Counted from the first letter of the stretch, positions 2,205-21,700 are shown. The stretch: DNA of 34,422 nt from Patescibacteria group bacterium (GCA_038063855.1 JBBTUF010000001.1:1-34422), one strand, 5' to 3'. Made by a program: numbers and translations. The notes: generated from the sequence alone by a model not told the origin.

Positions 2205-3401
2205 ATGGATATTGCCGAATTTTTAAAACGCCCGGGCGGTGCGCACGATACCAAACCTATTATTTTTGATCTTTCTGTTGAAGCCGATCGCACACAGGTA
2301 ACGGTGCTTGCTTCAACGCATGCAATACAACACATATCCGATGACTACCTCGAGCAACTCAAAGAATATTTTCAAATTCAAAATCCATCAAAAGTATATA
2401 CACCAGAATTTCTCACACTTTTTGAAGCGTATATAAAAAATATTGAATCGCAAACTCCGCTGTGGCAACATGGTCGGTGGGCATATTTTCCGTGGAATTC
2501 CACAATAGTTCATGTTCTTGAAGATGACTCATTTCAGCAAGTTCGCACTGCACGAAATAAAAACTTGATTACCGCTGGTGAGCAGAGTAAGTATTATAAT
2601 GCCGTCATCGGTATCGCAGGTCAAAGTGTAGGGCATGCGGTTGTTATGGCCATTGTGCTCCAAGGTGGTGGCAAACATTGGCGTATTGCCGATCACGATG
2701 CTTTGGCACTTTCAAATACCAACAGAATCCGAGTAGGTGTTGATAACCTTGGGCTTCCAAAAACAGTTATGACCTCTCGGCAAATCTATCAAACGAATCC
2801 ATACGCAGTAGTCGAACTATTTGCAGACGGACTCAATAAAAAAAATATAGACGTATTTTTTACGGGGCAATCTGGCGGACCAAAGCTCGACATCATAATT
2901 GATGAAATCGACAATCTCGCCGTAAAATATCTCATTCGCGAGCAGGCTAAAAAAAACAAACTGGCGGTAGTTATGGCCGCCGATAACGGCGACAACGCCG
3001 TGATTGATATCGAACGATATGATCTTGATCAAAATACACCATTTTTCCACGGTCGCATGGGCGAGGTAAATTATGAGATGCTTGCCGGGCTCGATAAATT
3101 TGGCATTGGTAAAATGATAACCAAGCATGTAGGTCCCAAAAATGTAACCGAACGCATGCAACAATCACTCGTGGAAGTGGGCAAAACTATTGTTTCCTGG
3201 CCACAGCTGGGTGGTGCGGCTCTCGTTAACGGCGCGGCGGTCGCATATTGCGTACGAAAAATTTTAAATGGCCAACCACTTGAAAATAACCGCGTGCTTA
3301 TTTCGCTCGATGAAAAATTAATCCCCGACTACAACTCGCCCGAACAAATTGAAAAACGTACGCGCATTGCCGACGATTTCCGTAAAATGTTTGGATTATA
3401 A
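2205..3401 (+). CDS. ThiF/MoeB (E1-like) family protein, Rv1355c-N-terminal-like
   Basis: Rossmann segment VIGIAGQSVGHAVVMAIVLQGGG followed by IADHDALALSNTNRI, corresponding to the E1 family D-x-D-x-v-x-x-SN-l-nR motif. 398 aa. Confidence 0.7.
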   Translation: MDIAEFLKRPGGAHDTKPIIFDLSVEADRTQVTVLASTHAIQHISDDYLEQLKEYFQIQNPSKVYTPEFLTLFEAYIKNIESQTPLWQHGRWAYFPWNSTIVHVLEDDSFQQVRTARNKNLITAGEQSKYYNAVIGIAGQSVGHAVVMAIVLQGGGKHWRIADHDALALSNTNRIRVGVDNLGLPKTVMTSRQIYQTNPYAVVELFADGLNKKNIDVFFTGQSGGPKLDIIIDEIDNLAVKYLIREQAKKNKLAVVMAADNGDNAVIDIERYDLDQNTPFFHGRMGEVNYEMLAGLDKFGIGKMITKHVGPKNVTERMQQSLVEVGKTIVSWPQLGGAALVNGAAVAYCVRKILNGQPLENNRVLISLDEKLIPDYNSPEQIEKRTRIADDFRKMFGL

Positions 3402-3463
3402 ATACAACTACCATCAATTCCCACAGTCTGATATACTAAACACATACATATCCGTAATTGATT

Positions 3464-5011
3464 ATGTCAAAAAAGATTGTACTCGATGGCAAGAGCTTAA
3501 AAATTGAAGACATTGTTGCAATTGTACGCGACACTAGCGTTTCGGTTGAGGTTTCCGAAAGTGCTTTTTTATTGTGTAAAAAAACTGAAGACTATCTTCA
3601 CAGCTCACTCAACGGTAAAATAATTTATGGAATTAATACGGGTTTTGGCCCTATGGCAACGCATGTAATCAACGGCGGCCAGCTTGAACAACTTCAAGAG
3701 AATCTTATCCGAAGCCATGCGGTGGGCATGGGGGAGGCAATTTCAAACGATTATGTACTCGCGGCAATGGTGGTACGCCTCAACACCCTTGCTCGAGGAT
3801 ATTCAGGAGTGTCGCGCGAACTTCTCGAGCGCTTACAATTTTTTATCAACAACCGAATTCTTCCGATTGTTCCCGAGCACGGCGCAGTTGGCACCAGCGG
3901 TGACCTCGTACAACTTGCTCACATTGCGCTCGCACTTCTCGGCAAAGGCGATGTTGTGTATAAAAATGTGCGCCAACCAGTATCAAAAGTACTCGCAACG
4001 CTGTCACAGCCGACGACATACAAACTAAAAATCAAAGAAGGCTTAGCGCTCATCAATGGCACCTCAATGATGTCAGGTATTGCGGCACTCGAAGTTACGC
4101 GTGCTGAAAATCTTTTACAAATCTCTGTACAAAATGGCGCGATGGCCATGGAAATGGTTCATGCGTTTGCCGATGGTGTCGCGGTGGAGCTTCACAATCT
4201 TCGTGCACATCGCGGGCAGGGGATAATTGCGAGCCGCCTTCGTGAAATCTTCGCTTCCTCAAAACTTCTCCGAAGTAGAAAAGTACTCCAAGGGGGTGAT
4301 GCTTTTGATGAAGAAGTTCATAAGCTGCCTGAAAGTGTGCAAGAAATTTATTCACTGCGGTGCATTCCGCAAATTTTAGGACCCGTGCATGATGCAATAG
4401 AAACTGCCGAAAATATTATTGGTGTTGAAATCAATTCGGTGACCGACAATCCAATCATCGATGTGGAGAGTGATTATATTTATCATGGCGGCAATTTTCA
4501 TGGTGACTATATTGCGTACGCCATAGATCAGTTAAAGATGACCATCGTGAAGCTAACAATTCTGTCCGAACGGCGCATTAACTTTTTCCTCAATGAAAAT
4601 ATAAACAAGCATTTTCCACCATTTATGAATCTTGTTCAGCCAGGTCTTACGCTTGGCCTTCAGGCGTTACAATTTGTAGCAACCTCAACCACAGCCGACA
4701 ATCAAACATTGGCATACCCACATTACGCGCATTCAATTCCAACCAATGGCGACAACCAAGATGTTGTGAGTATGGGCACCGATGCAGTGTTGTTTGCCGC
4801 AAAAGTTATTCAAAACGCATATATCGTGCTTGCGATAGAACTTATAACACTCGGGCAGGCGGTAGATTTTTGCGATGAGCGTGATCAATTATCAAAACAA
4901 TCTCTCGCATTGTATAATACTCTTCGCGAAGTTTTACCAGCAATAAAAGAAGATCGGGTATTAGTGTATGAGCTTCCAAAAGTGGTAGAAATATTACAAA
5001 AAGTAATGTAA
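3464..5011 (+). CDS. MIO-dependent aromatic amino acid ammonia-lyase/aminomutase family, histidine ammonia-lyase-like
   Basis: IYGINTGFGP, NLIRSHAVG (Ser-His as in HALs) and GAVGTSGDLVQLAH (MIO tripeptide position reads Thr-Ser-Gly). About 515 aa. The ORF track starts at TTG 3458; ATG 3464 is preferred. Confidence 0.85.
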   Translation: MSKKIVLDGKSLKIEDIVAIVRDTSVSVEVSESAFLLCKKTEDYLHSSLNGKIIYGINTGFGPMATHVINGGQLEQLQENLIRSHAVGMGEAISNDYVLAAMVVRLNTLARGYSGVSRELLERLQFFINNRILPIVPEHGAVGTSGDLVQLAHIALALLGKGDVVYKNVRQPVSKVLATLSQPTTYKLKIKEGLALINGTSMMSGIAALEVTRAENLLQISVQNGAMAMEMVHAFADGVAVELHNLRAHRGQGIIASRLREIFASSKLLRSRKVLQGGDAFDEEVHKLPESVQEIYSLRCIPQILGPVHDAIETAENIIGVEINSVTDNPIIDVESDYIYHGGNFHGDYIAYAIDQLKMTIVKLTILSERRINFFLNENINKHFPPFMNLVQPGLTLGLQALQFVATSTTADNQTLAYPHYAHSIPTNGDNQDVVSMGTDAVLFAAKVIQNAYIVLAIELITLGQAVDFCDERDQLSKQSLALYNTLREVLPAIKEDRVLVYELPKVVEILQKVM

Positions 5012-5012
5012 C

Positions 5013-6584
5013 ATGAAAAACCCCAAGGATGTTCTTGCGGCGTTTGACTTTAGTAAAAAGACCGAGTGGGTTGGAGATTTTTTAAAATTTGATATTCGCA
5101 CTCTCGAGCATCTTCTTACAACAAAGCCCGAATCTTTTTGGCTTCAAGAGGGTGAGTGGCGCGCGCTCAAGTTATTTCACCAAGCCGCCATTCGAGTGCC
5201 CGCGTACAAAGATTTTTTAGCGCGTCACAAAATACGACCCAATTCTATTTGCACCATCAAAGATTTCACCCAAGTTCCACCAACCGACAAGAAAAACTAT
5301 ATCAATGCCTATCCACTTGAAAAGCGCTGTTGGGATGGTAATCTTTCTCGCCTTAATTTACTTGCCATAAGCTCGGGTACCACCGGCGAGCCAAAGTTTT
5401 GGCCACGGGGAAATTATCAAGAATTTGAAGCGGGAATAATTCACGAGCTTATCTATCGCAATAGTTTTGATATTGAAAAATATCGAACACTACTGATAAT
5501 CGGCTTTCCAATGGGCGTGTATGTATCGGGTGTGGCGACGCTGTTTCCAAGCCTGTTGGTTGCAAGCAAAAATTATAATATGTCGATCGTAAGTCCAGGC
5601 AACAACAAGGCCGAGGTACTTCGTGCTGTACAAAACTTACAAAAAGATTTTGAGCAAATTATTTTAGTAGGCCACCCATTTTTTATAAAAGACGTCGTTG
5701 AGACGGGTCGGACACAGGGCATTCACTGGTCGCAAAAACGTCTACACATGATGTTTTGTAGCGAAGGGTTCAACGAAACCTGGCGCCGCTATGTGATTGC
5801 GGAGACCGGCCAACGTTTTGGCCTTCGTAGCACGGTAAGCACCTATGGATCGAGCGAACTTTTATTAATGGCGCACGAAACCCCGCTTTCTATTTATGTG
5901 CGAAGCCTCATGGATAAACATGCAAAATTCAAAGAACAACTCATATCAACATCATGGATACCGAGTGTATTTCAATACAATCCCGTTATGCGGTACATTC
6001 AGCAAGCAGGAAGCGATCTCATATTTACCTCACCGAGTGGCCTGCCATTAATTCGATACAACTTGCACGATGGTGGTAGTATCATGACGTTTCAAAATAT
6101 TCGCGCAACACTTGATCTGCAACACTCTTCATGGCAACGCGAGCTCCATGCCGATTCAAAATCAAATGCACTATGGCAATTGCCGTTTGTGATGCTTGGA
6201 AGCCGAACTGATCAGACAGTAATATTTTATGCGGCAAACATTTACCCCGAGCATATCCATTTGGCACTTAATTACGGCCCGTACTTGAAAAAACTCACGG
6301 GTAAATTTACCATGCACAAGCACTATCTCAAAAACCTCGATGAGTTTTTAGAAATAAATGTTGAACTCAAACCCAACATGCTTGCGAGTAAACTACTTGC
6401 AAAGTCGATTGAATCACATGTTGTACAAAGACTGCGCGAAATAAACTTAGAATATCTCGACATGTCGACAAAATTTGCTCACAAAAAAAACATTCGCCCC
6501 GTCATAAAACTCTGGCCCTATCAACATGAAAAACATTTCAAGGCAGGCCTTAAACCGAAATATATCATTACATCAATGAAATAA
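5013..6584 (+). CDS. adenylate-forming enzyme, PaaK / coenzyme F390 synthetase / CapK-like (ANL superfamily)
   Basis: ISSGTTGEPKFWPR (the SSGTTG-x-PK AMP-binding loop of PaaK-type ligases) and N-terminal VPAYKDFL...VPPTDKKNY. The ATG is 1 nt after the lyase stop, suggesting translational coupling. Confidence 0.7.
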   Translation: MKNPKDVLAAFDFSKKTEWVGDFLKFDIRTLEHLLTTKPESFWLQEGEWRALKLFHQAAIRVPAYKDFLARHKIRPNSICTIKDFTQVPPTDKKNYINAYPLEKRCWDGNLSRLNLLAISSGTTGEPKFWPRGNYQEFEAGIIHELIYRNSFDIEKYRTLLIIGFPMGVYVSGVATLFPSLLVASKNYNMSIVSPGNNKAEVLRAVQNLQKDFEQIILVGHPFFIKDVVETGRTQGIHWSQKRLHMMFCSEGFNETWRRYVIAETGQRFGLRSTVSTYGSSELLLMAHETPLSIYVRSLMDKHAKFKEQLISTSWIPSVFQYNPVMRYIQQAGSDLIFTSPSGLPLIRYNLHDGGSIMTFQNIRATLDLQHSSWQRELHADSKSNALWQLPFVMLGSRTDQTVIFYAANIYPEHIHLALNYGPYLKKLTGKFTMHKHYLKNLDEFLEINVELKPNMLASKLLAKSIESHVVQRLREINLEYLDMSTKFAHKKNIRPVIKLWPYQHEKHFKAGLKPKYIITSMK

Positions 6585-8647: not shown

Positions 8648-9385
8648 TCACCCTCCTTCTCGTAGACATATTTCGAGAAAATTCCGAAAGACTTCCGCAC
8701 CGTCTGGGCAATCCTTAACTGTCTCTAGAACATTTCGAAGACGTTTGGCTTCTTTATAGTTACCAGATGTTTCAAGTTTTTCTGCTCGTCCACCGAGAAG
8801 TTTGTGGAATATTTCAGGTGTAATTTCGGGATGAAACTGAACGCCCCACGTTGTGCCAATTCGAAATGCCTGAATGCCAGAATGATCGTTTTCAGCAAGA
8901 AGTATTGCATTTGATGGTAACTCAACAACATGATCGCCGTGCGACATCTGAACGAAACCTATCTCTGGGAAAGATTGAAATAATGAATCTGCGGCTCCTG
9001 CTGTGGTTCGCCGAATAGGTACGGAGCCAACCTCTCTTCCTTGTTTATGTCTTTCTATTTTTCCCTCAAGAGCTTTTGCGATAGCATGATGACCAAAACA
9101 AATCCCAAGGATGGGAACTTATCTATGATACTCGCGAATAATTGCCAGCAAACTATCGAACCATCCTGACCATGGCAAATCAGAAAAATTATGGATTGAA
9201 CCAGAAATAATAATTCCGGCTAAACAATCGATGAATTTTACATCTTGGATTGATCGAATACCGTCTACTTTCACCAGACAATCTCTAGAGAAACCAACTC
9301 GAGACGCCAAATCTTTATAGATCTCGACTATGTCAAAAAATGAATCGTCGAGAATATCGATAACAACTACTTTTTGCTGGGTCAT
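8648..9385 (-). pseudogene. class-I glutamine amidotransferase (GuaA-N/COG0518-like) interrupted by one in-frame TAA
   Basis: Track ORFs 9119..9469 and 8648..8947 are in the same frame (171 nt = 57 codons apart). Reading through the TAA at 9119-9121 gives ..EYHR*VPILGICFGHHAIAKAL.. (nucleophile elbow GICFGH), then ..GVQFHPE.. Start is ATG 9385, after GGGAGG. Confidence 0.8.
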
Positions 9386-9436
9386 ATTTGCCTCCCTTTT
9401 GTCAAAGAACTCTCGGGTTGTTTTTGTCCGCACAAT

Positions 9437-12153: not shown

Positions 12154-13179
12154 ATGAAACAAAACTTTAACGCATGGGATGTGAAGATAGAAGATTTTTT
12201 TGAGTTACAAACGGCTCAAGAAAAACTTTCTTTTCTTCTCAATTTTGCGGTTCTCGCACCATCGAGTCACAATAGCCAGCCGTGGTCGTTTCGCGTAACG
12301 AACAACGAGATAAAAATCTATGCCGATATGGCACGAAGTCTACCCGCAAGCGATACAAACAACCGCCAACTTTTGATTAGTTTAGGCTGTGTACTTGAAA
12401 ACATTTTAACTGCCGCAGAATATTATGGCTACGAGGTAAAAGTATCACTTCTCTCTGACACTGCCGACAATTCATGCATTGCAAGCATTGTATTTTCGGA
12501 AGCGCAAAACTATATTCGCCCCAAACATCATGCTATTTTTACAATACCAAAACGCCGCACCAATCGAACAAAGTACGACAACCGCCCACCCGAAGAAGAT
12601 TTTATTCAGTGGGTATCGAGCCTTGCGTCTGAAAACACCCAGTTTTTTTTAATTACCAACAAAACTAATAAAGATGCAATCGCAGATATTGTTATTGAAG
12701 CAGGCATCTCCGCAATGGAAAGCACAGACTTTCGACACGAATTGTCGCAATACGTAAAAAATAACTATACAAGCTCACCAATCGGAATGCCGCTGTATGG
12801 TTTTGGAGTACCCGGCCCAATCTCGCTTATAGCCCCTTTCATGATGAAATTTGTGAATATGAACAAAGTAAACGCAAAAACCGATAGCGATGTATTAAAA
12901 AACTACACGCCCGCAGTATTAGTTATTGCCACGCGTGACGATACTCGCAAAGAATGGCTTGAAACGGGGGCTCTCTACGAACGAATTGCGCTTGAAGCTG
13001 AACGCCGGGGTTTGAGCACTGCACCAAGTGCGGCGGTGATTCAAATAGGGGAGTTATATAAAAAACTTCAGGAAACACTCAAAACAAACTATCGCCCACA
13101 ATTCTTTGCGCGCGTTGGGTATGCTAAAGATACCACCAAACCAAGCCCACGCCTTGCGGCTAATATGGTTTTGAAATAA
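12154..13179 (+). CDS. Acg-type (tandem) nitroreductase-family FMN oxidoreductase
   Basis: LAPSSHNSQPWSF near the N-terminus, ~340 aa (double nitroreductase length), C-terminal ..ERRGLSTAP.. Confidence 0.7.
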   Translation: MKQNFNAWDVKIEDFFELQTAQEKLSFLLNFAVLAPSSHNSQPWSFRVTNNEIKIYADMARSLPASDTNNRQLLISLGCVLENILTAAEYYGYEVKVSLLSDTADNSCIASIVFSEAQNYIRPKHHAIFTIPKRRTNRTKYDNRPPEEDFIQWVSSLASENTQFFLITNKTNKDAIADIVIEAGISAMESTDFRHELSQYVKNNYTSSPIGMPLYGFGVPGPISLIAPFMMKFVNMNKVNAKTDSDVLKNYTPAVLVIATRDDTRKEWLETGALYERIALEAERRGLSTAPSAAVIQIGELYKKLQETLKTNYRPQFFARVGYAKDTTKPSPRLAANMVLK

Positions 13180-13188
13180 GTGTAGTTA

Positions 13189-13695
13189 TTAAATTCTCAC
13201 TCCTACTGCAGTTGCAAAAACTATCGCTACTGAAAGCAGTATCACCGTGTCTGCACCAATCCATAATGCTAAAAATCCGCCGCCTATCATGGAGAGTCCT
13301 ACAGCTACCTGTACAAAGCTATTATGCACTCCAATTTTCCCAGTAGCCCCGCTCGAGTAGTGAGCTATGAGTATTTGCTGCAGCGTCGCGAGAGAGGCTC
13401 CCAAAGCACCATAGAAAGTTTGCAGAACGTAGAGTGGAGCGTTAGGTACTAAATAGGCAAGCATCACCAACCCCTGCAACACAAGAGTCCACGAAAGCAC
13501 TCTTAAAGGATTTCTGTTCTCACAAGCCCATCCTACAAGGTATGTGGACGCTATTGACCCAAGCGACATAAGCCCAAAGAGCAACCCAAAAGCCTCCAGA
13601 CTATTGCCACGTCCTATAAGAATTTTGTACCACGCAGGCGTAAAAAGCCCAATGGCGAAATAAATAGCGAACTGAATATATGTGATTTTTTTCAT
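13189..13695 (-). CDS. small polytopic membrane protein (looks like half of an MFS-type transporter)
   Basis: Start taken at MKKITYIQFAIYF (ATG 13695). Five or six hydrophobic spans. The upstream 43 codons of the track ORF overlap the neighbouring gene and are rejected. Confidence 0.5.
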   Translation of the reverse strand: MKKITYIQFAIYFAIGLFTPAWYKILIGRGNSLEAFGLLFGLMSLGSIASTYLVGWACENRNPLRVLSWTLVLQGLVMLAYLVPNAPLYVLQTFYGALGASLATLQQILIAHYSSGATGKIGVHNSFVQVAVGLSMIGGGFLALWIGADTVILLSVAIVFATAVGVRI

Positions 13696-13777
13696 AATTA
13701 AATAAGATGAGAGGTGTTGGAAGGGACATTTAGTAACTAGATAAAAAGATTTAAAAAAAAATTTATAAAAAATATCT

Positions 13778-14449
13778 CTAGAGACCGCTTCCTTCCAAGA
13801 TTTGTTTTGAGCTTGTTCTGGCAAGTTTGTCGAGAGTAATATGATGTTTGCTCATAAATTTTTGAACAATTAGATACCCAAGTCGGTAGCCAATCCAGTT
13901 TGGTAATTCTCCTGACGCGTAAAACCATTCTCCTTGAAGTTTTAACTGCTCAGATATACTTCTTTTTTGAAGAAGTTGTTCCTTTACTTCATGCCAAAGG
14001 GCTTGTTCATTTTTAATTTTTTGAATATACAAGATTTTCCGTTTTGGCAAAATAGATTGTTCAATAAAACAACCTATGCCTTCATCTATAAAAATATCCA
14101 GAAGAGTGTTCCAATCACCGACGGCTTTTACTCGAACAACATGAGAAACTTCATGATACATAGTTAAAGGTAACTCAGTCTTAATTATTGTATCAATGTT
14201 CTTTTTCGAAAAACAAATCTTAAAATCTATGCGCGATGATCCACCGAATGTAATTGCCGCAAGATGCATTTTGGGATGGATTTCCCACGCTTCAGCTCCA
14301 AATATAGCCACATTAATATGCTGTTTGTATTTTAAAATTTGCATGGCTTCACTTAACCCCTCGAATGCATGAACAGAAACTGCTAAACGATACTTCGCAG
14401 GGATTCCAATAAGATGAATATTGCCATTTTTACAAACACGATTAGTCAT
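13778..14449 (-). CDS. predicted Zn-dependent protease (HExxH, DUF2268-like)
   Basis: LTMYHEVSHVVRV (HExxH) followed by IDEGIGCFIEQ, a possible third-ligand Glu. 223 aa. Confidence 0.55.
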   Translation of the reverse strand: MTNRVCKNGNIHLIGIPAKYRLAVSVHAFEGLSEAMQILKYKQHINVAIFGAEAWEIHPKMHLAAITFGGSSRIDFKICFSKKNIDTIIKTELPLTMYHEVSHVVRVKAVGDWNTLLDIFIDEGIGCFIEQSILPKRKILYIQKIKNEQALWHEVKEQLLQKRSISEQLKLQGEWFYASGELPNWIGYRLGYLIVQKFMSKHHITLDKLARTSSKQILEGSGL

Positions 14450-14478
14450 ATGTTCTATATATAATATAAAATAATATT

Positions 14479-14506
14479 CCCTGTGGTGCCCTTCGTCACC
14501 ACAGGG
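14479..14506 (-). terminator. perfect 10-bp hairpin after the precursor ORF (terminator or mRNA-stabilising stem)
   Basis: ccctgtggtg / caccacaggg with an 8-nt loop, 9 nt after the precursor stop. The minus-strand tail AATATTATTTTA is A/T-rich but not a clean U-tract. Confidence 0.5.
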
Positions 14507-14515
14507 ATTTTCTCG

Positions 14516-14650
14516 TTAACCTTTTCCGCAAGTACCACCGCCACTGCAAGCGCCACCACTACGAAGTGAGTAAACTTGTTTATCGCCCGTGTATGGCCGA
14601 ACCTTTGCTGTGACTTGCGCGGCTGTTTTACGCATTACAGACTTTTTCAT
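14516..14650 (-). CDS. RiPP precursor peptide, 44 aa, TOMM/LAP-type (MKKSVMRKTAAQVTAKVRPYTGDKQVYSLRSGGACSGGGTCGKG)
   Basis: Hand-translated from the minus strand: ATG at 14650, TAA at 14518-14516. AGGAGGTG lies 8 nt upstream. It begins 39 nt after the stop of the SagB::YcaO gene on the same strand. The core-like tail contains only Gly, Ala, Cys, Ser, Thr and Lys. Confidence 0.7.
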   Translation of the reverse strand: MKKSVMRKTAAQVTAKVRPYTGDKQVYSLRSGGACSGGGTCGKG

Positions 14651-14689
14651 AAGCTTCACACCTCCTATCAGGCCTTGTTGGCGTTTACT

Positions 14690-16900
14690 TTACGCAAAGA
14701 AGTGTGGAATTGAAGGGTATTCCATATTCCACTTTAATCCTACTACAGCCATTCTTGGATGTCCAAAGTGCTCGCTACCATAACCAAAATTGATAGGCAT
14801 GAGTTTTTCAGACAATACTCGAACAACTGTGAGTCCACAGTCATACTCCTTAGGAGTGATATTAACTACGATTGGATCAAAGCGACTTAAATCACCACTA
14901 AAATCTTTAGGAGGAATCTGATTTCCATTTGCCTCAAGGAGCCACTCGGCATATACAAGGTTCTTGGGATCCGAGTAGAAAAGTCCATGATCGTCGGGGC
15001 TTTGTACATCCCTTATATCCATGTTGCGCTTTTGCTTACGCCCATGCCATGTCATTGCCATAAATTCTGCTTCATTAAATGCTCTTTCTGCGGCGTCAAT
15101 AAAAATTGATCTACAACTTGCCCCAGAAAATAGCGCTGGCCGCTTATCTCGCGACCAAATGACAACCAATATAACTGGCTGGCCATCAAGCGTTAGGTCA
15201 AGAAAAGATACTTTATAACCAAGCTCCTCCCAAACCAAAACTCGCTCTCTTACAGTATTCGAAAAGTATTCATGCGAAATTGCATTGACATGGCGCTTGG
15301 CATACCAAGTCACACTAATTGCATCTCTTTCGATTAGCTCACAGAGAGCCGCCTCAACCGCTAATTGCTTTTCAAAGTGAGCCGCAACGCCGCTTGAATT
15401 GGCGCGATAGAAAATTTTTCTATCACCTTGGATGCCAGTACATGCATAGAATACGAGCTCTGTAGGAACCCACACCCTAGCACCAGTAACTTCGCGTGCT
15501 CCAATTACCCATCCAATTTTTTCCCGAGGATCAAATCGTTTGATATCTTTCAAAATTTTGCCTTGGGCTGGCATGTATGGCACGACAGTGCGCGGGTCAA
15601 GAAACGCCTCATTAAGCTTTAGCGCGCATTCAATGCGATCATTTCGCTGCTGTTCTAACGAATACCGCTCAAAACCTTCGGCCAGCACCTTGACAACTGC
15701 TTCGCTCGACGTAGAACCCGTCGCAAATGCACGACACCTTTTCTTCGTAGGAGTGGCAGCATATTTATAAGGAGGGGAATACAACGCAACCGCTCCCCAT
15801 TGAGACATTACATTACCATTTACTTCTGGCTCCCAAAAGAAAACGCTCCTAATAGGCTTGTTATGCCCGACGAGTGTACGGCGAAGATGATTTGCACTTT
15901 CAACTATTTCTTGATCGGCTCTATGGGCTTTTATTCCGCTACGATCTTTGGTTCCCACAATAAGGGTTATAGCAACAACCTCATTGGAAGACTGCAAACC
16001 AAGCTCTCGCGCTAATGCTTTATCATTGAATCCGCTATACTCGACAATACCTAAGTCTTGTTCGGCACAAAACAGATACGCATTCTGAGCAGCATGTCCA
16101 GCTTCAAGCATAATGTGTCGATACCCACGATTAGCATATTTCGATATAGTGCGTTTAAGATTTACTGCGATGCAAAGTATGTACGCGGCATGCTCCAAAA
16201 GCATTTTTGTATTAAATACTTTTGTGAGCCACACATTTGGATTTTTCTCAGAAATGACCGTCACTACACGATCCTCAGGATTCCAACGATATATCCCTAT
16301 TGGAAGTGACTGGCTGTCTCCATGGACAATTAGATATAGATCGAGCGGATACATCGCACCGCCCGATGGTACACTCCAATGCCCATTTTCTCCTATGCCA
16401 TATGTCGCTTCAAGTAGCCCCGATAATTTATTTCCTGGGATCTGACCGTCTTGGAATTGTCGAATAGATTGCCGTTTATGAATAACATCCAAGGTGTTAC
16501 TTTTATCTGGCACTGGAAGCCGAATAATTCTACCATCACGTTCGCGCAGACGTTGAGATTTCATGATTAATGCTGCATCATTCACGCCAAGATCATATGA
16601 GAAAATTCCAGGATTTGCGGAGTCTTCATGAAACCCAATATGAAGTTCTCGGCTATCTCGAACGATTCCTTGAGTTTCAAGGAGCTCTAATAATTTGAAG
16701 ATCTCTTCGGTAGTCATTGATCGTAATTTATCCACAATATCGCGAACACTGGTCATTCCAGTACAGAGACGAAGAAGTTTTCTGATCTTCACTGCCTTGC
16801 CTGAGAGCGTAATGATTCCTTTACGCCCGATAAACTGAAGCTCGTTTCTCTTGCTTGAATAGCCATAAAGTACGACAAGAGGTTGCGAATTCGCCTGCAT
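14690..16900 (-). CDS. fused SagB-type FMN dehydrogenase :: YcaO cyclodehydratase with an N-terminal wHTH (RRE-like) segment
   Basis: Nitroreductase/SagB motifs: KRQSIRQF, VPSGGAMYPLDLYLIV, MLEAGHAAQNAYLFCAEQDLG. YcaO motifs: AFATGSTSSEAVVKVLAEGFERYS, NSSGVAAHFEKQLAVEAALCELIERDA. Start set at ATG 16900 (AAGGAG 7 nt upstream) rather than the track start at 17002. Confidence 0.88.
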   Translation of the reverse strand: MQANSQPLVVLYGYSSKRNELQFIGRKGIITLSGKAVKIRKLLRLCTGMTSVRDIVDKLRSMTTEEIFKLLELLETQGIVRDSRELHIGFHEDSANPGIFSYDLGVNDAALIMKSQRLRERDGRIIRLPVPDKSNTLDVIHKRQSIRQFQDGQIPGNKLSGLLEATYGIGENGHWSVPSGGAMYPLDLYLIVHGDSQSLPIGIYRWNPEDRVVTVISEKNPNVWLTKVFNTKMLLEHAAYILCIAVNLKRTISKYANRGYRHIMLEAGHAAQNAYLFCAEQDLGIVEYSGFNDKALARELGLQSSNEVVAITLIVGTKDRSGIKAHRADQEIVESANHLRRTLVGHNKPIRSVFFWEPEVNGNVMSQWGAVALYSPPYKYAATPTKKRCRAFATGSTSSEAVVKVLAEGFERYSLEQQRNDRIECALKLNEAFLDPRTVVPYMPAQGKILKDIKRFDPREKIGWVIGAREVTGARVWVPTELVFYACTGIQGDRKIFYRANSSGVAAHFEKQLAVEAALCELIERDAISVTWYAKRHVNAISHEYFSNTVRERVLVWEELGYKVSFLDLTLDGQPVILVVIWSRDKRPALFSGASCRSIFIDAAERAFNEAEFMAMTWHGRKQKRNMDIRDVQSPDDHGLFYSDPKNLVYAEWLLEANGNQIPPKDFSGDLSRFDPIVVNITPKEYDCGLTVVRVLSEKLMPINFGYGSEHFGHPRMAVVGLKWNMEYPSIPHFFA

Positions 16901-17066: not shown

Positions 17067-18011
17067 ATGCCCCAAGCGCGAACCCAACAAATCAATGAGA
17101 TAATAAAAGACCTCGAAGACCTCAAAAAACGGGGTTTTGAGAACATGTATGCGCTTGATGAAAATATAGAATTTTTTGAAGCAATGCACTCGCCGATACA
17201 ATATATACGATGGTTTTTAAATGAACGGCCAAAAATTGACGGCTCGCGACTTTTAGAACTTTCGGATTTTCCTCTCGGGCATGGTCGGTGGGAGGCGATA
17301 TTACAAGCCGAACTTTTAGAAATTGAACAATGGAAATTTCCCGACAATCTTGCTCGTTTTCGTAAATCAATGCTTGGCGTATTAGAACATCTTAAATCTG
17401 ATAAGAGATTAGTTTTATTGAATCTTGGATGTGGCCCAATGGAGTTAGAGCGGCAAATTATTAAAAATTATCTTGAAAACAAAAATCAGCAGAAAGTTGT
17501 TTTTATTGGCATCGACATGTCAGACGCTTCTCTTGCTCTGGCCGAAAAAAATATTCAAAGCATACACATTCCACTCGAAAAAGTATCGACACTCAATACC
17601 ACTGTGCTCAATGAACTTAGCGCCAAACATGCTCATGATCAATTTTATACTGTTTTATTCAAGGGTGATGCAACAAAGGCCGATCAGTATTTTAAAAAAG
17701 GCGAAGTAGATATATTATTGTATACAAAATTCAGGCATCATTTAACTCCTGACCAAAGAATCAATTTTGATAAAATGGTCACGGATATATCAGATCATGT
17801 TATTGAGGACGATCTTTTAAATAATCTTTTTATGTTTACAGTTCCGTTGATTGGGCGTTCTCAATGGAAACACTCTGTTCTGCTAAATGGCGGAATGTTT
17901 AGTGCTCTGCGATGCCCTACAAAAAAAGATGTACAACAATTACTGCCGGGCTGGTCTATCAAAACTGCACCAGATGGCTATACAAAGGTGTACGATGTGT
18001 GTTTAAAATGA
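17067..18011 (+). CDS. class I SAM-dependent methyltransferase
   Basis: VLLNLGCGPMELE (motif I) and VVFIGIDMSDASL (motif II acidic residue). Divergent from the SagB::YcaO gene. Confidence 0.65.
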   Translation: MPQARTQQINEIIKDLEDLKKRGFENMYALDENIEFFEAMHSPIQYIRWFLNERPKIDGSRLLELSDFPLGHGRWEAILQAELLEIEQWKFPDNLARFRKSMLGVLEHLKSDKRLVLLNLGCGPMELERQIIKNYLENKNQQKVVFIGIDMSDASLALAEKNIQSIHIPLEKVSTLNTTVLNELSAKHAHDQFYTVLFKGDATKADQYFKKGEVDILLYTKFRHHLTPDQRINFDKMVTDISDHVIEDDLLNNLFMFTVPLIGRSQWKHSVLLNGGMFSALRCPTKKDVQQLLPGWSIKTAPDGYTKVYDVCLK

Positions 18012-18081
18012 TGATATATTTTGTAGCAAACATCTAGCTCGGATAAGACACAATATTCTTCAAATCAGGTTAAAATCAAAT

Positions 18082-18849
18082 ATGCTTGCAATTATTATTT
18101 CAAAATTAGAACCATTTGAAACTGGCGCGCGCATAATAGCAGATGATTGTAAATCAGTATCTCTTAGTGCAAAAATTCTATTTTTAGAGGATATTATTCT
18201 GGGGAGTAACGCAATTGAGTTGCTTGATGGCGTCAAGATCCTTTATTTTTTAACAAATGATTCGTCTCTTGAACGATATGTCGAGTACTTCGTTCGTAAA
18301 AATATATTGGTAATCAATAAGGATTTTTATCGTTGGAATAGATCAAAGTTCTCAATTCAAGATCGTCTTAAGCTTGCTGGTATACAAATTCCGAGATCTA
18401 TCGCCACTCAAAATTTCTCGATTTTACTTTCCGAGAGTCGGTTTTTGGATTTCCCTCTATATATAAAGAGTCAGAATCAATCTAGTTTGGTTATTAAAGT
18501 CGCAGACGAAGAAGCGCTCAGACGCGCTTTGTCAGACATAACACAGCGAAATGATTTCTATTTAGAACAATCCGTTGATGCTGAGTGCGGCTCTGTAACA
18601 AAATATTATTTCGTAGATAGATTATCGTGCGGGATAAATGGGGATTTGTCTCCACCAATAATATCATCTGTATTAAAATCTATTTCTACAATTCTGAGTC
18701 TTGATGTTTTTTCAGTCGATCTATTTGTGGGAGATGATAAAAAGTCTTATTGGTGCATCGATGTAAATCCTGCGCCCGGTCTTTTTAATTCAAAACATGG
18801 CCGCTCAGAATTCATTAAATATGCTCAGCGCTTAGATCATCACTTATAA
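18082..18849 (+). CDS. ATP-grasp fold enzyme (small, RimK/ITPK-like)
   Basis: KFSIQDRLKLAGIQIPRS, FPLYIKS..SSLVIKV, FYLEQSV, and C-terminal FSVDLFV..YWCIDVNPAPG (the ATP-grasp E/N Mg-binding region). Confidence 0.6.
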   Translation: MLAIIISKLEPFETGARIIADDCKSVSLSAKILFLEDIILGSNAIELLDGVKILYFLTNDSSLERYVEYFVRKNILVINKDFYRWNRSKFSIQDRLKLAGIQIPRSIATQNFSILLSESRFLDFPLYIKSQNQSSLVIKVADEEALRRALSDITQRNDFYLEQSVDAECGSVTKYYFVDRLSCGINGDLSPPIISSVLKSISTILSLDVFSVDLFVGDDKKSYWCIDVNPAPGLFNSKHGRSEFIKYAQRLDHHL

Positions 18850-19354
18850 CAAGACGTTCAATCATCGGTTGTACTATCATAAAATAGCGTTTAAGATTAT
18901 CATATTTTAGTATAGCAACAACCTCATTAATCGGAACCCATTTTAATTGATCTCTTTTGTGTTCCGCCTTGAATTTACTCCTGTTTACTGGGCGCATGAG
19001 GTACATATGTGTCAAAATCGTTCGACTATCGTTATGGAGATATTCAAGTGGTATTAATTTCGCAAAAATTTCAACAATAAGACCAGTTTCTTCTTCTACC
19101 TCTCTTTTTGCTGCTCTAGCTGGCGTTTCTCCAGCTTCGATGTGACCTTTTGGGAAAGTCCAATCTTGTTGTTTCGCGCGATATAATAAAGCAACTTTAG
19201 GAATTTTATTTTTTTGTATTACAATACCGCCCGCCTTATAGACGACCTGTTTTTCTGGTCTTTCGGGTATATACATAAGGTAGATTAAAAAATGTCCTCT
19301 CTTGTAAGATTTTACCAGAGAGGACAATCGGGTTTCAAGTGCAAAGCGATCCAC
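18815..19354 (-). CDS. NUDIX hydrolase
   Basis: Complete Nudix box GHIEAGETPARAAKREVEEETGL. An alternative start at ATG 19276 would remove the overlap with the upstream gene. The 3' end overlaps the ATP-grasp 3' end by 35 nt (convergent). Confidence 0.85.
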   Translation of the reverse strand: MDRFALETRLSSLVKSYKRGHFLIYLMYIPERPEKQVVYKAGGIVIQKNKIPKVALLYRAKQQDWTFPKGHIEAGETPARAAKREVEEETGLIVEIFAKLIPLEYLHNDSRTILTHMYLMRPVNRSKFKAEHKRDQLKWVPINEVVAILKYDNLKRYFMIVQPMIERLVISDDLSAEHI

Positions 19355-19880
19355 TATTATTAGTTAAATGCGAGATGAGAGCTGCGCATTCTTGTACCTG
19401 AAGCTCGTCGTTATTAGTACCAGTAAACGCCCACTCAATTTCTGACATTAAGCAACGAAAACTTTCATCAAAACTAGCATGCCAGTAATGAGTTCTCTTG
19501 ATATCGAGGACTCTATCGAGAGGGCTATTTCTGGCATTTCGCACTATCTGTGGCGTAAAAACCCCTGTAAGAATTGCTCTTCGCCCCGATGACTTGATTA
19601 CGTCCCATTCAAGAGGATTGTGGACAGCATCAAGAACAATTTTAGGCACAGACACTATCTTCGCAAGTACCATTGCCATCAATTCTGAAGAACCAACTGT
19701 TCTGTAAATATTTCGATACCATTGAATTGACTCGATCGATTCAGGTGAGGAAAAACTTTTACCAAATAGCTCTTCAAGGATATGGCGCTTGTTTACGTGC
19801 GTCCATTCAAAATAAGTTTCAAAAATACGAGACAAATGACTCTTGCCACACCCGTGTAGCCCTGTTAAAACTATAATCAT
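19335..19880 (-). CDS. P-loop NTPase / small-molecule or nucleotide kinase-like protein
   Basis: N-terminal Walker A MIIVLTGLHGCGKSHL, 181 aa. The start overlaps the radical SAM stop by 4 nt. Confidence 0.65.
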   Translation of the reverse strand: MIIVLTGLHGCGKSHLSRIFETYFEWTHVNKRHILEELFGKSFSSPESIESIQWYRNIYRTVGSSELMAMVLAKIVSVPKIVLDAVHNPLEWDVIKSSGRRAILTGVFTPQIVRNARNSPLDRVLDIKRTHYWHASFDESFRCLMSEIEWAFTGTNNDELQVQECAALISHLTNNSGSLCT

Positions 19881-21061
19881 AGAGCATCCCTTTCTTGTGC
19901 GTTCGTTGACTCTTGTTTAACAAGTGCAATCGCCAAACAATTTGTACAGGGACCATTGGTGCTGGCATTATGTATCGGCAGATTACGACGGAGTGCTGAA
20001 ATATGGTCTGACTTAACAAGCCGTTTCCATATTATGGTAAATTTTTCTTGCAGCAAATTTCCAACGTTTGCTTCTCCGAGAGGGCCAAGGAATCCACACG
20101 TTTGTACTTTTCCATTTGGCAGAATAACGAGACCGCGATGACCCGCACTACAACTGTGACGAGTGAACGGTAAAACGACTCGCGTTTCTATTATTTTCTC
20201 GCGAAAATAATGACCATGAATTAACCCGCGAGAATCTGAAAGATAATATGAGAGTTCCGATTCAAGTTTCATATAATCTTTTTTTGTTAATATTTCGGAC
20301 ACATCGTAAGCAGACCTTCCTGAAGGGATAAATCTCCGAATGAAGACTGCAACGCCGAGACCATGGAGATATTCTGTGAGTGTGATGATATCGTCCATAT
20401 TGGATCTCATAACAACGGCGTTGATCCGAACACTAATTCCGTACGACTGCAGAGCGTGAATACCTTCCATCGCACGATCGAAACTTCCTTGTCCTCGTAT
20501 CTTATCATGGACTTTTTTGGTGCCATCAATACTAACGATAGCAAGGTGAAGTAACTTCGATATCCTCTCCATCCTTAACCCCTTTGTTAGAATGCCATTT
20601 GTACCCAAGGAGATACGTAAATGACTTTCCGAGGCAAAAATCATTAGATCTTCGAGATCTGCTGAAAGCGTCGGCTCCCCACCAGTAAAACGAATTTCTT
20701 GGACACCGCATGCGATAAGATCTTGAATTATTTTAAGACGCTCTTTTAGAGAAGCTTCATCTACTAATTTGATGCCCGAGCTATTAAAACAGTGAGCGCA
20801 TCGCAAGTTGCATGCACGAGTTATTTCAAAGAACACCACATCAGGAGCACTAAAATTATCATTTGGAAGCCATTCGGGGTAGGTTATATGTAGTTCACCT
20901 CCCATACCTAACTTAAGCAATAACTCCTCTGCTACTGGGTCGTTACGCCTTGCCACCGTTTCAAATTCGAGTTGGTCGAGATAGGTGCGTAGTCCAGTAT
21001 GCGGCGCAAAGAGCGTTCCCCCAAAACATTCTTGTCTGAGCTTCAGTATTGGTCGCTTCAT
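19877..21061 (-). CDS. radical SAM / SPASM-domain maturase
   Basis: EITRACNLRCAHCF (CxxxCxxC), FTGGEPTL, and a C-terminal Cys cluster CSAGHRGLVILPNGKVQTCGF...NGPCTNCLA (SPASM-like). About 80 aa of N-terminal extension precede the cluster. AAGGAG RBS. Confidence 0.85.
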   Translation of the reverse strand: MKRPILKLRQECFGGTLFAPHTGLRTYLDQLEFETVARRNDPVAEELLLKLGMGGELHITYPEWLPNDNFSAPDVVFFEITRACNLRCAHCFNSSGIKLVDEASLKERLKIIQDLIACGVQEIRFTGGEPTLSADLEDLMIFASESHLRISLGTNGILTKGLRMERISKLLHLAIVSIDGTKKVHDKIRGQGSFDRAMEGIHALQSYGISVRINAVVMRSNMDDIITLTEYLHGLGVAVFIRRFIPSGRSAYDVSEILTKKDYMKLESELSYYLSDSRGLIHGHYFREKIIETRVVLPFTRHSCSAGHRGLVILPNGKVQTCGFLGPLGEANVGNLLQEKFTIIWKRLVKSDHISALRRNLPIHNASTNGPCTNCLAIALVKQESTNAQERDAL

Positions 21062-21099: not shown

Positions 21100-21700
21100 A
21101 GCGTTAAGAGTACACCATAAAGGTAGGCTGTGTCAACTACCACGGCCTCACGGCCGTGGCTTGTTATTGAGATTTGGAGTTGAATGCAGGCTTCGCCTGT
21201 CCGCCATCCTCTCTGCCTTGCATGTCTATGTACTTCCGAATCATTGCTTCGTTGATGCCTACGGTGGAAACAAAGTAGCCTCCTGACCAAATACCGTCCT
21301 CTCCCCAATAGACATCTTTGAGAAAAAGAAACTTCTTTCGCATGGCACGGCCAGTATTGCTTTTGATAATATTGATCACCTTGCTTACTGAGAATCGTGG
21401 TGGAATAGAGACGAGGAAATGGATGTGGTCCTTGTCTGTCCTGGCTTTCTCTATTCGTATGTCAGGATAGTATTTCGAGATCTCCTTGAGTTGTTGTGAC
21501 GCAATACTGGCCTACTCCCTCAGTGAAGATTTTACGACGGTATTTGGTCGTCATGACTACATGGTATTCGGTTCCATAGACACAATGTCCCTGACGGCGA
21601 TACTCCATTGTTCAAGAATACCATGAGGATGGCGGATCCTATCCTTCCCCAGCCTCACGGCTGGGGCTTGCCGGTGGAAGAGTCAACGCGTCGTAATGTA
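21100..21700 (-). mobile_element. IS200-type (IS200/IS605 family, tnpA only) insertion sequence; ends approximate
   Basis: Y1/HUH transposase gene flanked by two subterminal perfect hairpins with identical TCAC loops: ccacggcc-tcac-ggccgtgg (21140-21159) and ccccagcc-tcac-ggctgggg (21647-21666). No terminal inverted repeats, as expected for this family. Confidence 0.7.
21164..21608 (-). pseudogene. tnpA: IS200 tnpA (Y1 HUH transposase) with a +1 frameshift
   Basis: N-terminal frame: MEYRRQGHCVYGTEYHVVMTTKYRRKIFTEGVGQY.., which hits TGA. C-terminal frame: ..SIASQQLKEISKYYPDIRIEKARTDKDHIHFLVSIPPRFSVSKVINIIKSNTG...GYFVSTVG..RKYI. The frames join if one G is removed from GGAGTAGGCCAG (about 21505-21516). 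Confidence 0.8.

Follow-up and report, generated by a model that had tools for sequence, protein, structure and literature searches.

Does a 44-residue open reading frame (ORF) that adjoins a gene fusing a SagB-type dehydrogenase to a YcaO domain encode a peptide at all and, if so, is that peptide the substrate of its neighbour? The question is raised by a 34,422-nt stretch of DNA from a Patescibacteria group bacterium (GCA_038063855.1 JBBTUF010000001.1:1-34422; hereafter the window, with positions counted from its first letter), in which the ORF occupies positions 14516–14650 on the minus strand. An initial annotation had proposed it as the leader-plus-core precursor of a YcaO/SagB system, i.e., of a peptide that is made by the ribosome and modified after translation (RiPP). 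This proposal is now supported by conserved synteny, by selection on the core, by intact motifs in the enzyme and by a RiPP recognition element (RRE) at the enzyme’s N-terminus. In our judgement it is likely that the ORF is the precursor gene of a three-gene RiPP system of the linear azol(in)e-containing peptide/thiazole-oxazole-modified microcin (LAP/TOMM) type, in which the neighbouring three-in-one enzyme probably makes a thiazole/oxazole compound from the precursor.

The small ORF and its relatives

The ORF runs from ATG 14650 to TAA 14518–14516 and, as first reported, translates to MKKSVMRKTAAQVTAKVRPYTGDKQVYSLRSGGACSGGGTCGKG (window:14516-14650, minus strand; 44 residues plus stop). Its context was likewise described correctly: a Shine-Dalgarno sequence, AGGAGGTG, can be read directly at 14659–14666 on the same strand, 8 nt from the ATG, and the gap between the TAA of the upstream fusion gene (14692–14690) and the ATG is 39 nt. 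An in-frame GTG at 14659 offers an alternative start that would yield 47 residues, but it is less likely because it sits within the Shine-Dalgarno sequence itself. Roughly residues 1–30 of the peptide form the leader, which includes the recognition motif AKVRPY, and the core is (R)SGGACSGGGTCGKG, a 14-residue tail in which every residue other than Gly, Ala or Lys is indeed Cys, Ser or Thr. Among the window’s 397 small ORFs (25–80 residues), this ORF has the highest Cys/Ser/Thr/Gly density with at least two Cys (12 of 14), and in 30 shuffled windows no ORF, out of 12,248, came up to its score.

The gene is followed on the same strand by a hairpin (14478–14507) with an 8-nt loop and then an A/T-rich run; the stem, perfect as the initial annotation had it, measures 11 bp. 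Its folding energy is −21.7 kcal/mol (z = −5.4), and 0 of 200 shuffled sequences folded equally well. The hairpin is probably an intrinsic terminator, possibly leaky, or an RNA-stabilising stem. A cyano-S1 leader non-coding RNA match over the hairpin was rejected (26 bits vs a gathering score of 39.9, and on the opposite strand), and an Rfam search of the locus gave no match above the gathering score. A promoter scan was uninformative (16 sites observed vs 16.1 expected), and in NCBIfam and Pfam searches the window peptide matched no curated precursor family.

For comparison we used 79 loci from species-representative genomes, each coding for a relative of the fusion protein. The majority are Patescibacteria (Taylorbacteria, Paceibacteria, Saccharibacteria, Nanosyncoccus, Gracilibacteria, Kerfeldbacteria, Magasanikbacteria and Yanofskybacteria), and the set includes Proteobacteria (Variovorax, Achromobacter and Cupriavidus). 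Small-ORF synteny was counted over 52 loci, every one with a full-length fusion gene. In approximately 46 of these 52, the enzyme gene is adjoined by a small ORF of the same orientation, whose leader has the form [KR]-x-x-P-Y and whose tail is rich in Cys, Ser and Gly; small ORFs beside orthologous SagB::YcaO genes, which the initial annotation had named as a check, are thus conserved. The precursor, co-oriented, its leader basic and its tail rich in Cys, Ser and Gly, lies directly downstream of the fusion gene in ~29 loci, those of window-like lineages among them (for example …VSVRSYKDIPGTRCTRSGGACPGGGTCGK, …VQVKPYEGTKLSSIYACRSGGACPGGGTCGGR and …VKIRPYEHAQQSGSGSSTSGCAGSGSCGH…), a count that includes eight loci of more distant clades with an F-S-W-x-V leader and three with a Variovorax-type leader. 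In 17 Saccharibacteria/Nanosyncoccus loci, oral TM7 among them, it is found ~200 nt upstream on the same strand (for example MKKLLDVKRTPYDVNVAAAGNCGGAGCGSGCGGGCGGGGGSCGGG…), and in the remaining 6, one of which is at a contig end, there is no candidate.

A hidden Markov model (HMM) built on a 16-residue block of the leader (…K-V-x-V-[KR]-P-Y…) was run against 26,445 six-frame segments from the loci and the window (1.04 Mb). Its top 34 matches were all small ORFs adjoining a fusion gene, including ones from loci outside the training set. They are separated by a gap in score from the best remaining match (9.7 bits), which is itself a second precursor copy in locus L001 (see below). Leaders come in a PY, an FSW and a Variovorax type, which follow the enzyme clades, and the adjacency and shared orientation of peptide ORF and enzyme gene hold over enzyme identities of 25% to 76%.

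The close relatives of the window peptide (eight protein relatives plus loci) are a closely knit subgroup that shares the core R-S-G-G-A-C-[S/P]-G-G-G-[T/S]-C-G-[K/R]. When this core was aligned by codon across eight loci, the amino acids were kept, third positions varied freely and serines switched between AGY and TCN codons. Over RSGGAC[SP]GGG[TS]CG the mean synonymous divergence (pS) was 0.72 and the non-synonymous divergence (pN) 0.074, giving a pN/pS of ~0.10 with synonymous sites near saturation. The core is thus under strong purifying selection, which is the signature of a translated and constrained product. Inspection of the flanks by eye revealed a purine-rich, Shine-Dalgarno-like sequence before most homologous ORFs, and a hairpin with a T-run after the precursor stop in most of seven homologous loci, the latter judged by eye on unfolded sequence. 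Only Ser31, Cys35, Thr/Ser40 and Cys41 are conserved, which argues for their importance, while roughly one in two close homologues has Pro in place of Ser36. The initial annotation had suggested that both adjacent pairs, Cys-Ser and Thr-Cys, could give bis-heterocycles; because Ser36 is so often Pro, the former is not conserved and the T/S-C pair is the only credible conserved bis-azole site.

A frame left open by chance within an intergenic spacer, encoding nothing, would also be short, missing from the supplied annotation track and rarely called, and all three apply here: among 5.8 billion predicted proteins we found eight relatives of the window peptide, none of them functionally named. Gene finders almost never call the ORF, which makes the precursor family invisible in standard annotation; a product identical over all 44 residues is called as a gene on three public contigs (P0121). 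A chance frame is nonetheless hardly credible in view of the low pN/pS at near-saturated synonymous change, the conservation of Shine-Dalgarno sequence, position and strand, the composition that no shuffled ORF matched and the specificity of the leader HMM, and we regard it as excluded by the comparative data. As far as such sequence comparisons can tell, the ORF is a real, conserved gene.

Two of the loci illustrate how far the cores can diverge. Directly downstream of the fusion gene, L037 encodes a core with a Cys-Asp repeat (…DSDNCGCDCECDSDCQCDCGCGCNCDCAGDCGQD), and L036, in the same position, a core with a sub-threshold match to heterocycloanthracin (…CGNCGQCGGGGGNCGGQCGGGKCGGGK). So striking a difference points to hypervariable cores on a conserved enzyme scaffold.

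The fusion enzyme and the conserved module

The gene preceding the precursor (14690–16900, minus strand) encodes a 736-residue maturase that joins an RRE, a SagB-type flavin mononucleotide (FMN) dehydrogenase and a YcaO cyclodehydratase. We place its start at ATG 16900, which has AAAGGAG upstream and gives the length of essentially all homologues; GTG 17002 was rejected as a start. The fusion family is large, with 323 clusters at 50% identity (E ≤ 1e-30), and its architecture is fixed: of the 150 best, the majority have 700–750 residues and align over nearly their whole length. Pfam searches of the fusion protein returned Nitroreductase (6e-19) and YcaO (PF02624, 1e-40, profile positions 3–320 of 325), and the SagB model TIGR03605 was passed with 99.9 bits (cutoff 78.4).

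By sequence, approximately the first 95 residues gave weak winged helix-turn-helix and PqqD matches only (Pfam, family members) and nothing meaningful in a PDB profile search. Since sequence-only identification failed, structure prediction and Foldseek were needed for this domain. An AlphaFold2 (AF2) model of residues 1–137 had a predicted local distance difference test score (pLDDT) of 80 overall and >90 over residues 1–90, the RRE part. Sixteen of its top 17 Foldseek matches in the PDB were RRE-bearing RiPP proteins (best E-value 1.5e-3), the sole other protein being the non-ribosomal peptide synthetase oxidase BmdC at rank 11; the RRE matches included TruD, LynD, the PbtF RRE, TigE, TbiB1, McbB and ThcOx, and PqqD appeared at rank 20. 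According to the model, the N-terminus thus adopts an RRE fold (a winged helix, residues ~7–82; 16655–16882, minus strand), and leader binding is predicted.

The two catalytic domains retain their motifs. In the SagB/McbC-type dehydrogenase domain (residues ~140–316; 15953–16483, minus strand), Lys254-Tyr255 is invariant across 86 homologues and is the counterpart of the catalytic pair Lys201/Tyr202 of McbC (PMC6395948). In the YcaO domain (residues ~394–736; 14693–15721, minus strand), the ATP/Mg motifs ExxER (E408/E411/R412) and ELIERD (E521/E524/R525/D526) are invariant over the same 86 and align with those of MusD and LynD. The C-terminal tail, YPSxPHFFA, is strongly conserved (H733 invariant, P732 and F735 nearly so) and differs from the canonical PxPxP, the Pro-rich end that azoline-forming YcaOs insert into their active site; terminal prolines are important in McbD (PMC6395948). 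The full-length AF2 model (pLDDT 91.5, predicted template modelling score 0.89) has LynD/TruD, MusD, BmdC, archaeal YcaOs, McbD, McbC and ThcOx as its Foldseek neighbours, and the enzyme is probably homodimeric.

On the other side of the precursor, a gene at 13778–14449 (minus strand) encodes a predicted Zn metalloprotease of the DUF2268 family (PF10026, 1e-19) with the HExxH motif HEVSH at residues 99–103, which is likely a candidate leader peptidase. Homologues were found by tblastn in 31 of the 79 loci, at least 25 of them within ~1.5 kb of the fusion gene, on either strand, and annotated neighbourhoods confirmed the pairing. When neighbours from the window were searched against these loci, DUF2268 was the sole co-conserved one, so that the module consists of three genes: those for the peptide, the RRE-SagB-YcaO fusion and the DUF2268 HExxH protease form a conserved module. 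In L001, the second precursor copy mentioned above (9151–9432, plus strand; MEKQESKTTIAKVAVTITPYEGSFQAFSLKSGSGCGGGSCSGGGSCGKCGK) follows a DUF2268 gene and is preceded in frame by the remnant of a YcaO C-terminus (…EHYGH…YPPTLYFFA), which suggests that the module was once duplicated in tandem and that the second enzyme gene then decayed.

Proposed chemistry and its alternatives

Extending the RRE/YcaO/SagB paradigm known from LynD-PatE and McbBCD-McbA to this module, we infer that the fusion enzyme forms azoles on the peptide. The leader, through V-x-x-K-V-R-P-Y, would dock as a β-strand on the enzyme’s N-terminal RRE. The YcaO domain, spending ATP, would cyclodehydrate Cys35 and Cys41 to thiazolines, and would probably also convert Thr40, and possibly Ser31/Ser36, to (methyl)oxazolines. 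The fused FMN dehydrogenase would oxidise the azolines to azoles via Lys254/Tyr255, with a possible methyloxazole-thiazole bis-heterocycle at Thr40-Cys41, and the DUF2268 metalloprotease would remove the leader. In such a scheme the dehydrogenase would in effect stand where LynD-type enzymes have their E1-like domain, and one polypeptide would serve as azole synthetase. The mature product, if microcin B17, klebsazolicin and phazolicin are taken as analogues, would most likely be an antibacterial or interference molecule.

Several observations weigh against this reading. Canonical azoline-forming YcaOs depend on a partner of the E1-like or Ocin-ThiF kind, and the present system lacks one: the 736 residues have no room for such a domain (RRE 1–95, SagB 140–316, YcaO 394–736), and no ThiF/E1-like gene is present in the annotated neighbourhoods of the homologous loci. 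The best YcaO-type NCBIfam match of the fusion protein, the SagD model TIGR03604, scores 150.7 bits and thus falls below its trusted cutoff of 219.25; relative to this model, the YcaO domain appears by sequence to be a divergent subfamily. Among solved structures its nearest relative by plain sequence is the thioamide-forming archaeal MJ1094. RREs fused to dehydrogenases are suspected to be vestigial (PMC7470986). No exporter or immunity gene, including those for ATP-binding cassette transporters, is conserved in the related loci, so that a bioactive, secreted product rests on analogy. Lastly, L086/L087 (4001–4841, plus strand) hold a pair of precursor (…ACRSGGACPGGGSCGR) and DUF2268 genes, with a YceG gene on the opposite strand as upstream neighbour and the fusion gene absent within 4 kb, which points either to an enzyme gene at another site or to a module in decay. 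In terms of classification, the system is LAP/TOMM-type by function, while it lacks the C/F partner of that class and scores below the curated SagD cutoff.

The missing E1-like partner, the SagD score and the proximity to MJ1094 would also fit a peptide that is the true substrate of a YcaO with non-azole chemistry, i.e., formation of a thioamide or a bottromycin-like (macro)amidine, MusD-like ATP-dependent cleavage, or azolines left unoxidised. A further point in favour is that MusD, a YcaO that has peptidase activity, is a close structural neighbour. We consider such chemistry unlikely. A SagB-type dehydrogenase with the invariant Lys-Tyr pair is fused in every family member, and the sole sensible reading of this intact pair is that azolines are produced. 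The protein also scores far higher with the SagD model than with the thioamidation model TIGR03266 (150.7 vs 62.4 bits), no TfuA or sulfur-donor gene is conserved nearby in the annotated neighbourhoods, and the residues conserved in the core are precisely the cyclisable Cys and Ser/Thr.

More improbable still is that the peptide is an unmodified Cys/Gly-rich mini-protein with a metal-binding or regulatory role, and that the enzyme acts on some other substrate, e.g., a housekeeping protein, in the way suggested for E. coli YcaO. Such a role would suit the name ‘ribosomal protein S12 methylthiotransferase accessory factor’ that some homologues carry, the L086/L087 pair without an adjacent fusion gene, and the unusually wide spread of the module in genomes otherwise poor in biosynthetic clusters. 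It is at odds with the adjacent, co-oriented peptide ORF in most loci across enzyme identities as low as 25%, with leader types that track enzyme clades and with the RRE, a predicted peptide-binding fold, on the enzyme. A conserved leader followed by hypervariable cores of differing length is also typical of RiPP precursors and unlike folded mini-proteins. The reading that we favour is therefore that of a precursor peptide converted by its neighbouring enzyme into an azole-containing product.

Surrounding genes, known systems and significance

Other genes of the window were considered as tailoring enzymes of the module and rejected on tblastn of the 79 loci, although they may have lineage-specific tailoring roles. 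A methyltransferase (17067–18011) and an ATP-grasp-like gene (18082–18849) were found in 0 of 79 loci; of the flanking enzymes named by the initial annotation, only the DUF2268 gene therefore belongs to the module, and the genes at 17067–18849 do not. No co-conservation was seen for a radical SAM/SPASM gene (19877–21061), a half-length major facilitator superfamily (MFS) gene (13189–13824) or an Acg nitroreductase gene (12154–13179). The window’s only ThiF-family gene (2205–3401) is 11 kb away and was likewise rejected, with 0 of 79 loci.

Some of these genes merit a brief description in their own right. The half-MFS ORF (minus strand) matches only the N-terminal half of an MFS transporter (profile 4–166 of 347) and shares 47 nt with the 3′ end of the DUF2268 gene. 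An interval of 10 nt separates its end from that of the convergent nitroreductase gene, and the ORF may be what is left of a truncated exporter. Locus L083 has a full-length MFS gene four genes past its DUF2268 gene. The radical SAM/SPASM protein (minus strand) is matched best by mycofactocin, NirJ and sactipeptide maturases, all below cutoff. Its gene is followed by those for a P-loop-like protein (19335–19880) and a NUDIX hydrolase (18815–19354), and no convincing precursor ORF was seen upstream of it; the locus could be a second RiPP-like locus or hold a cofactor gene. Between the radical SAM gene and a histidine kinase gene, two adjacent small ORFs (21164–21608, minus strand) correspond to N- and C-terminal pieces of an IS200-like Y1 transposase (PF01797, 4.7e-5 and 1.3e-8), i.e., to an insertion sequence that is split and probably decayed. 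At 2205–6584 (plus strand), the ThiF-family protein, an aromatic amino-acid ammonia-lyase (5e-151) and a 523-residue protein without Pfam match are encoded in a row, and the product of 12154–13179 (plus strand) is an FMN oxidoreductase of the Acg/Rv3131 type, with a further match to the nitroreductase half of ThiF fusions of the Rv1355c type. These two regions may belong to a small-molecule pathway, with no co-conservation with the YcaO module. In the Taylorbacteria loci L080-L082 (10301–13264, plus strand), the three-gene module is directly upstream of genes resembling those of a type IV secretion system (PrgI, TraC-like, TraG P-loop and a possible pilin), which may be coincidence or a link to a mobile/secretion island.

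Among known systems, microcin B17 (McbA/McbBCD) offers the same combination of a leader and a Gly-rich core with two enzymes, the YcaO McbD and the FMN dehydrogenase McbC, the latter with a catalytic Lys-Tyr pair. Cys and Ser of the Gly-rich McbA core become thiazoles and oxazoles, and the conserved T/S-C pair, in a G-(S/T)-C-G site, matches the G-S-C-G site of its oxazole-thiazole bis-heterocycle. The Saccharibacteria homologues (…GNCGGAGCGSGCGGGCGGGGGSCGGG…) strongly resemble McbA in composition, whereas the window peptide has no detectable sequence homology to it and its core has only ~14 residues with 2 Cys. The present synthetase is one polypeptide, in contrast to the B4C2D2 octamer of McbBCD, and the E1-like McbB is absent, with the RRE fused to the dehydrogenase instead. 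A dedicated (predicted) DUF2268 leader protease stands in place of TldD/E, and McbEFG-type export and immunity are not conserved. The window system thus falls outside the microcin B17 family.

In structure, the N-terminal RRE and the C-terminal YcaO alike are matched best by the cyanobactin heterocyclases LynD/TruD/PatD, which share with the present enzyme a single chain whose N-terminal RRE tethers the leader and whose C-terminal YcaO cyclises the core, functions that are predicted here. In those enzymes (RRE, E1-like, YcaO), however, the middle domain is E1-like, while here a SagB dehydrogenase replaces it and oxidation is built in. The cyanobactin systems further differ by PatA/PatG proteases and macrocyclisation, which have no equivalent here, and identity is only 13–20%. 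An N-terminal RRE-like domain fused to a SagB/McbC-type FMN dehydrogenase is also found in ThcOx/CyaGox, but ThcOx has two RRE copies, no YcaO and a separate RRE-containing heterocyclase. The RREs of ThcOx-type dehydrogenases have been suggested to be vestigial, whereas the present one is the only RRE in its module and well conserved. The YcaOs of bottromycin and trifolitoxin have been proposed to be independent of a C protein (Cox 2015, PMC4603692), and the YcaO domain described here, judging from its sequence, would resemble these standalone enzymes in acting without a C/F partner. They carry no fused dehydrogenase or RRE, and bottromycin has a follower peptide, a macroamidine and a single thiazoline, unlike the present system. 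Finally, Gly/Cys repeat cores recall heterocycloanthracin/sonorensin (TIGR03601); two distant family members reached 27 and 13.7 bits with this model (cutoff 35) and the window peptide gave no match. In heterocycloanthracin systems, moreover, a CD-fused cyclodehydratase is paired with an Ocin-ThiF F protein, and the leader differs.

Patescibacteria, or the candidate phyla radiation (CPR), have tiny genomes with very few biosynthetic clusters, and yet the three-gene module is widespread among them. Mining of CPR genomes has yielded 110 LAP clusters, 89 of which have a nitroreductase beside the YcaO; such clusters, from Microgenomates and Parcubacteria, contain YcaO, nitroreductase, peptidase and small precursor genes (Sharrar 2020, PMC7298704), and the present family probably overlaps this set. 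The example published there has separate genes and an 84-residue precursor, in contrast to the fused enzyme and 44-residue peptide described here. The part of that study on which we draw reports genome mining only and makes no mention of the fusion architecture, the RRE or the [KR]xxPY leader/RSGGAC…TCG core family. The initial annotation’s description of the system as uncharacterised thus holds in the experimental sense, although such CPR clusters had not gone unnoticed (PMC7298704). In the literature, which was incompletely covered, we found genome-mining mentions only and no description of the dehydrogenase-YcaO fusion, the precursor family or its product. The system is real, coherent and experimentally very tractable, yet not a new category.

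If the fusion enzyme works alone, no machinery known to install azoles would be more compact: a single gene would cover recognition, cyclodehydration and oxidation, which makes the enzyme attractive for peptide engineering. The enzyme also allows a direct test of whether a YcaO can form azolines without an E1-like activator domain and of whether dehydrogenase-fused RREs are functional. Carriers of the module include Candidatus Nanosyncoccus nanoralicus (TM7 G3 HOT-351) and metagenome-assembled genomes labelled ORAL, and the wide distribution of carriers, oral Saccharibacteria among them, suggests a role in interactions of episymbionts with hosts or competitors. More tentatively, the module may represent a new minimal class, i.e., a one-polypeptide azole synthetase without E1/ThiF, in which the dehydrogenase-fused RRE is functional and a conserved mini-LAP bears a (methyl)oxazole-thiazole pharmacophore, which Patescibacteria, including human oral Saccharibacteria, may use against competitors or on their hosts.

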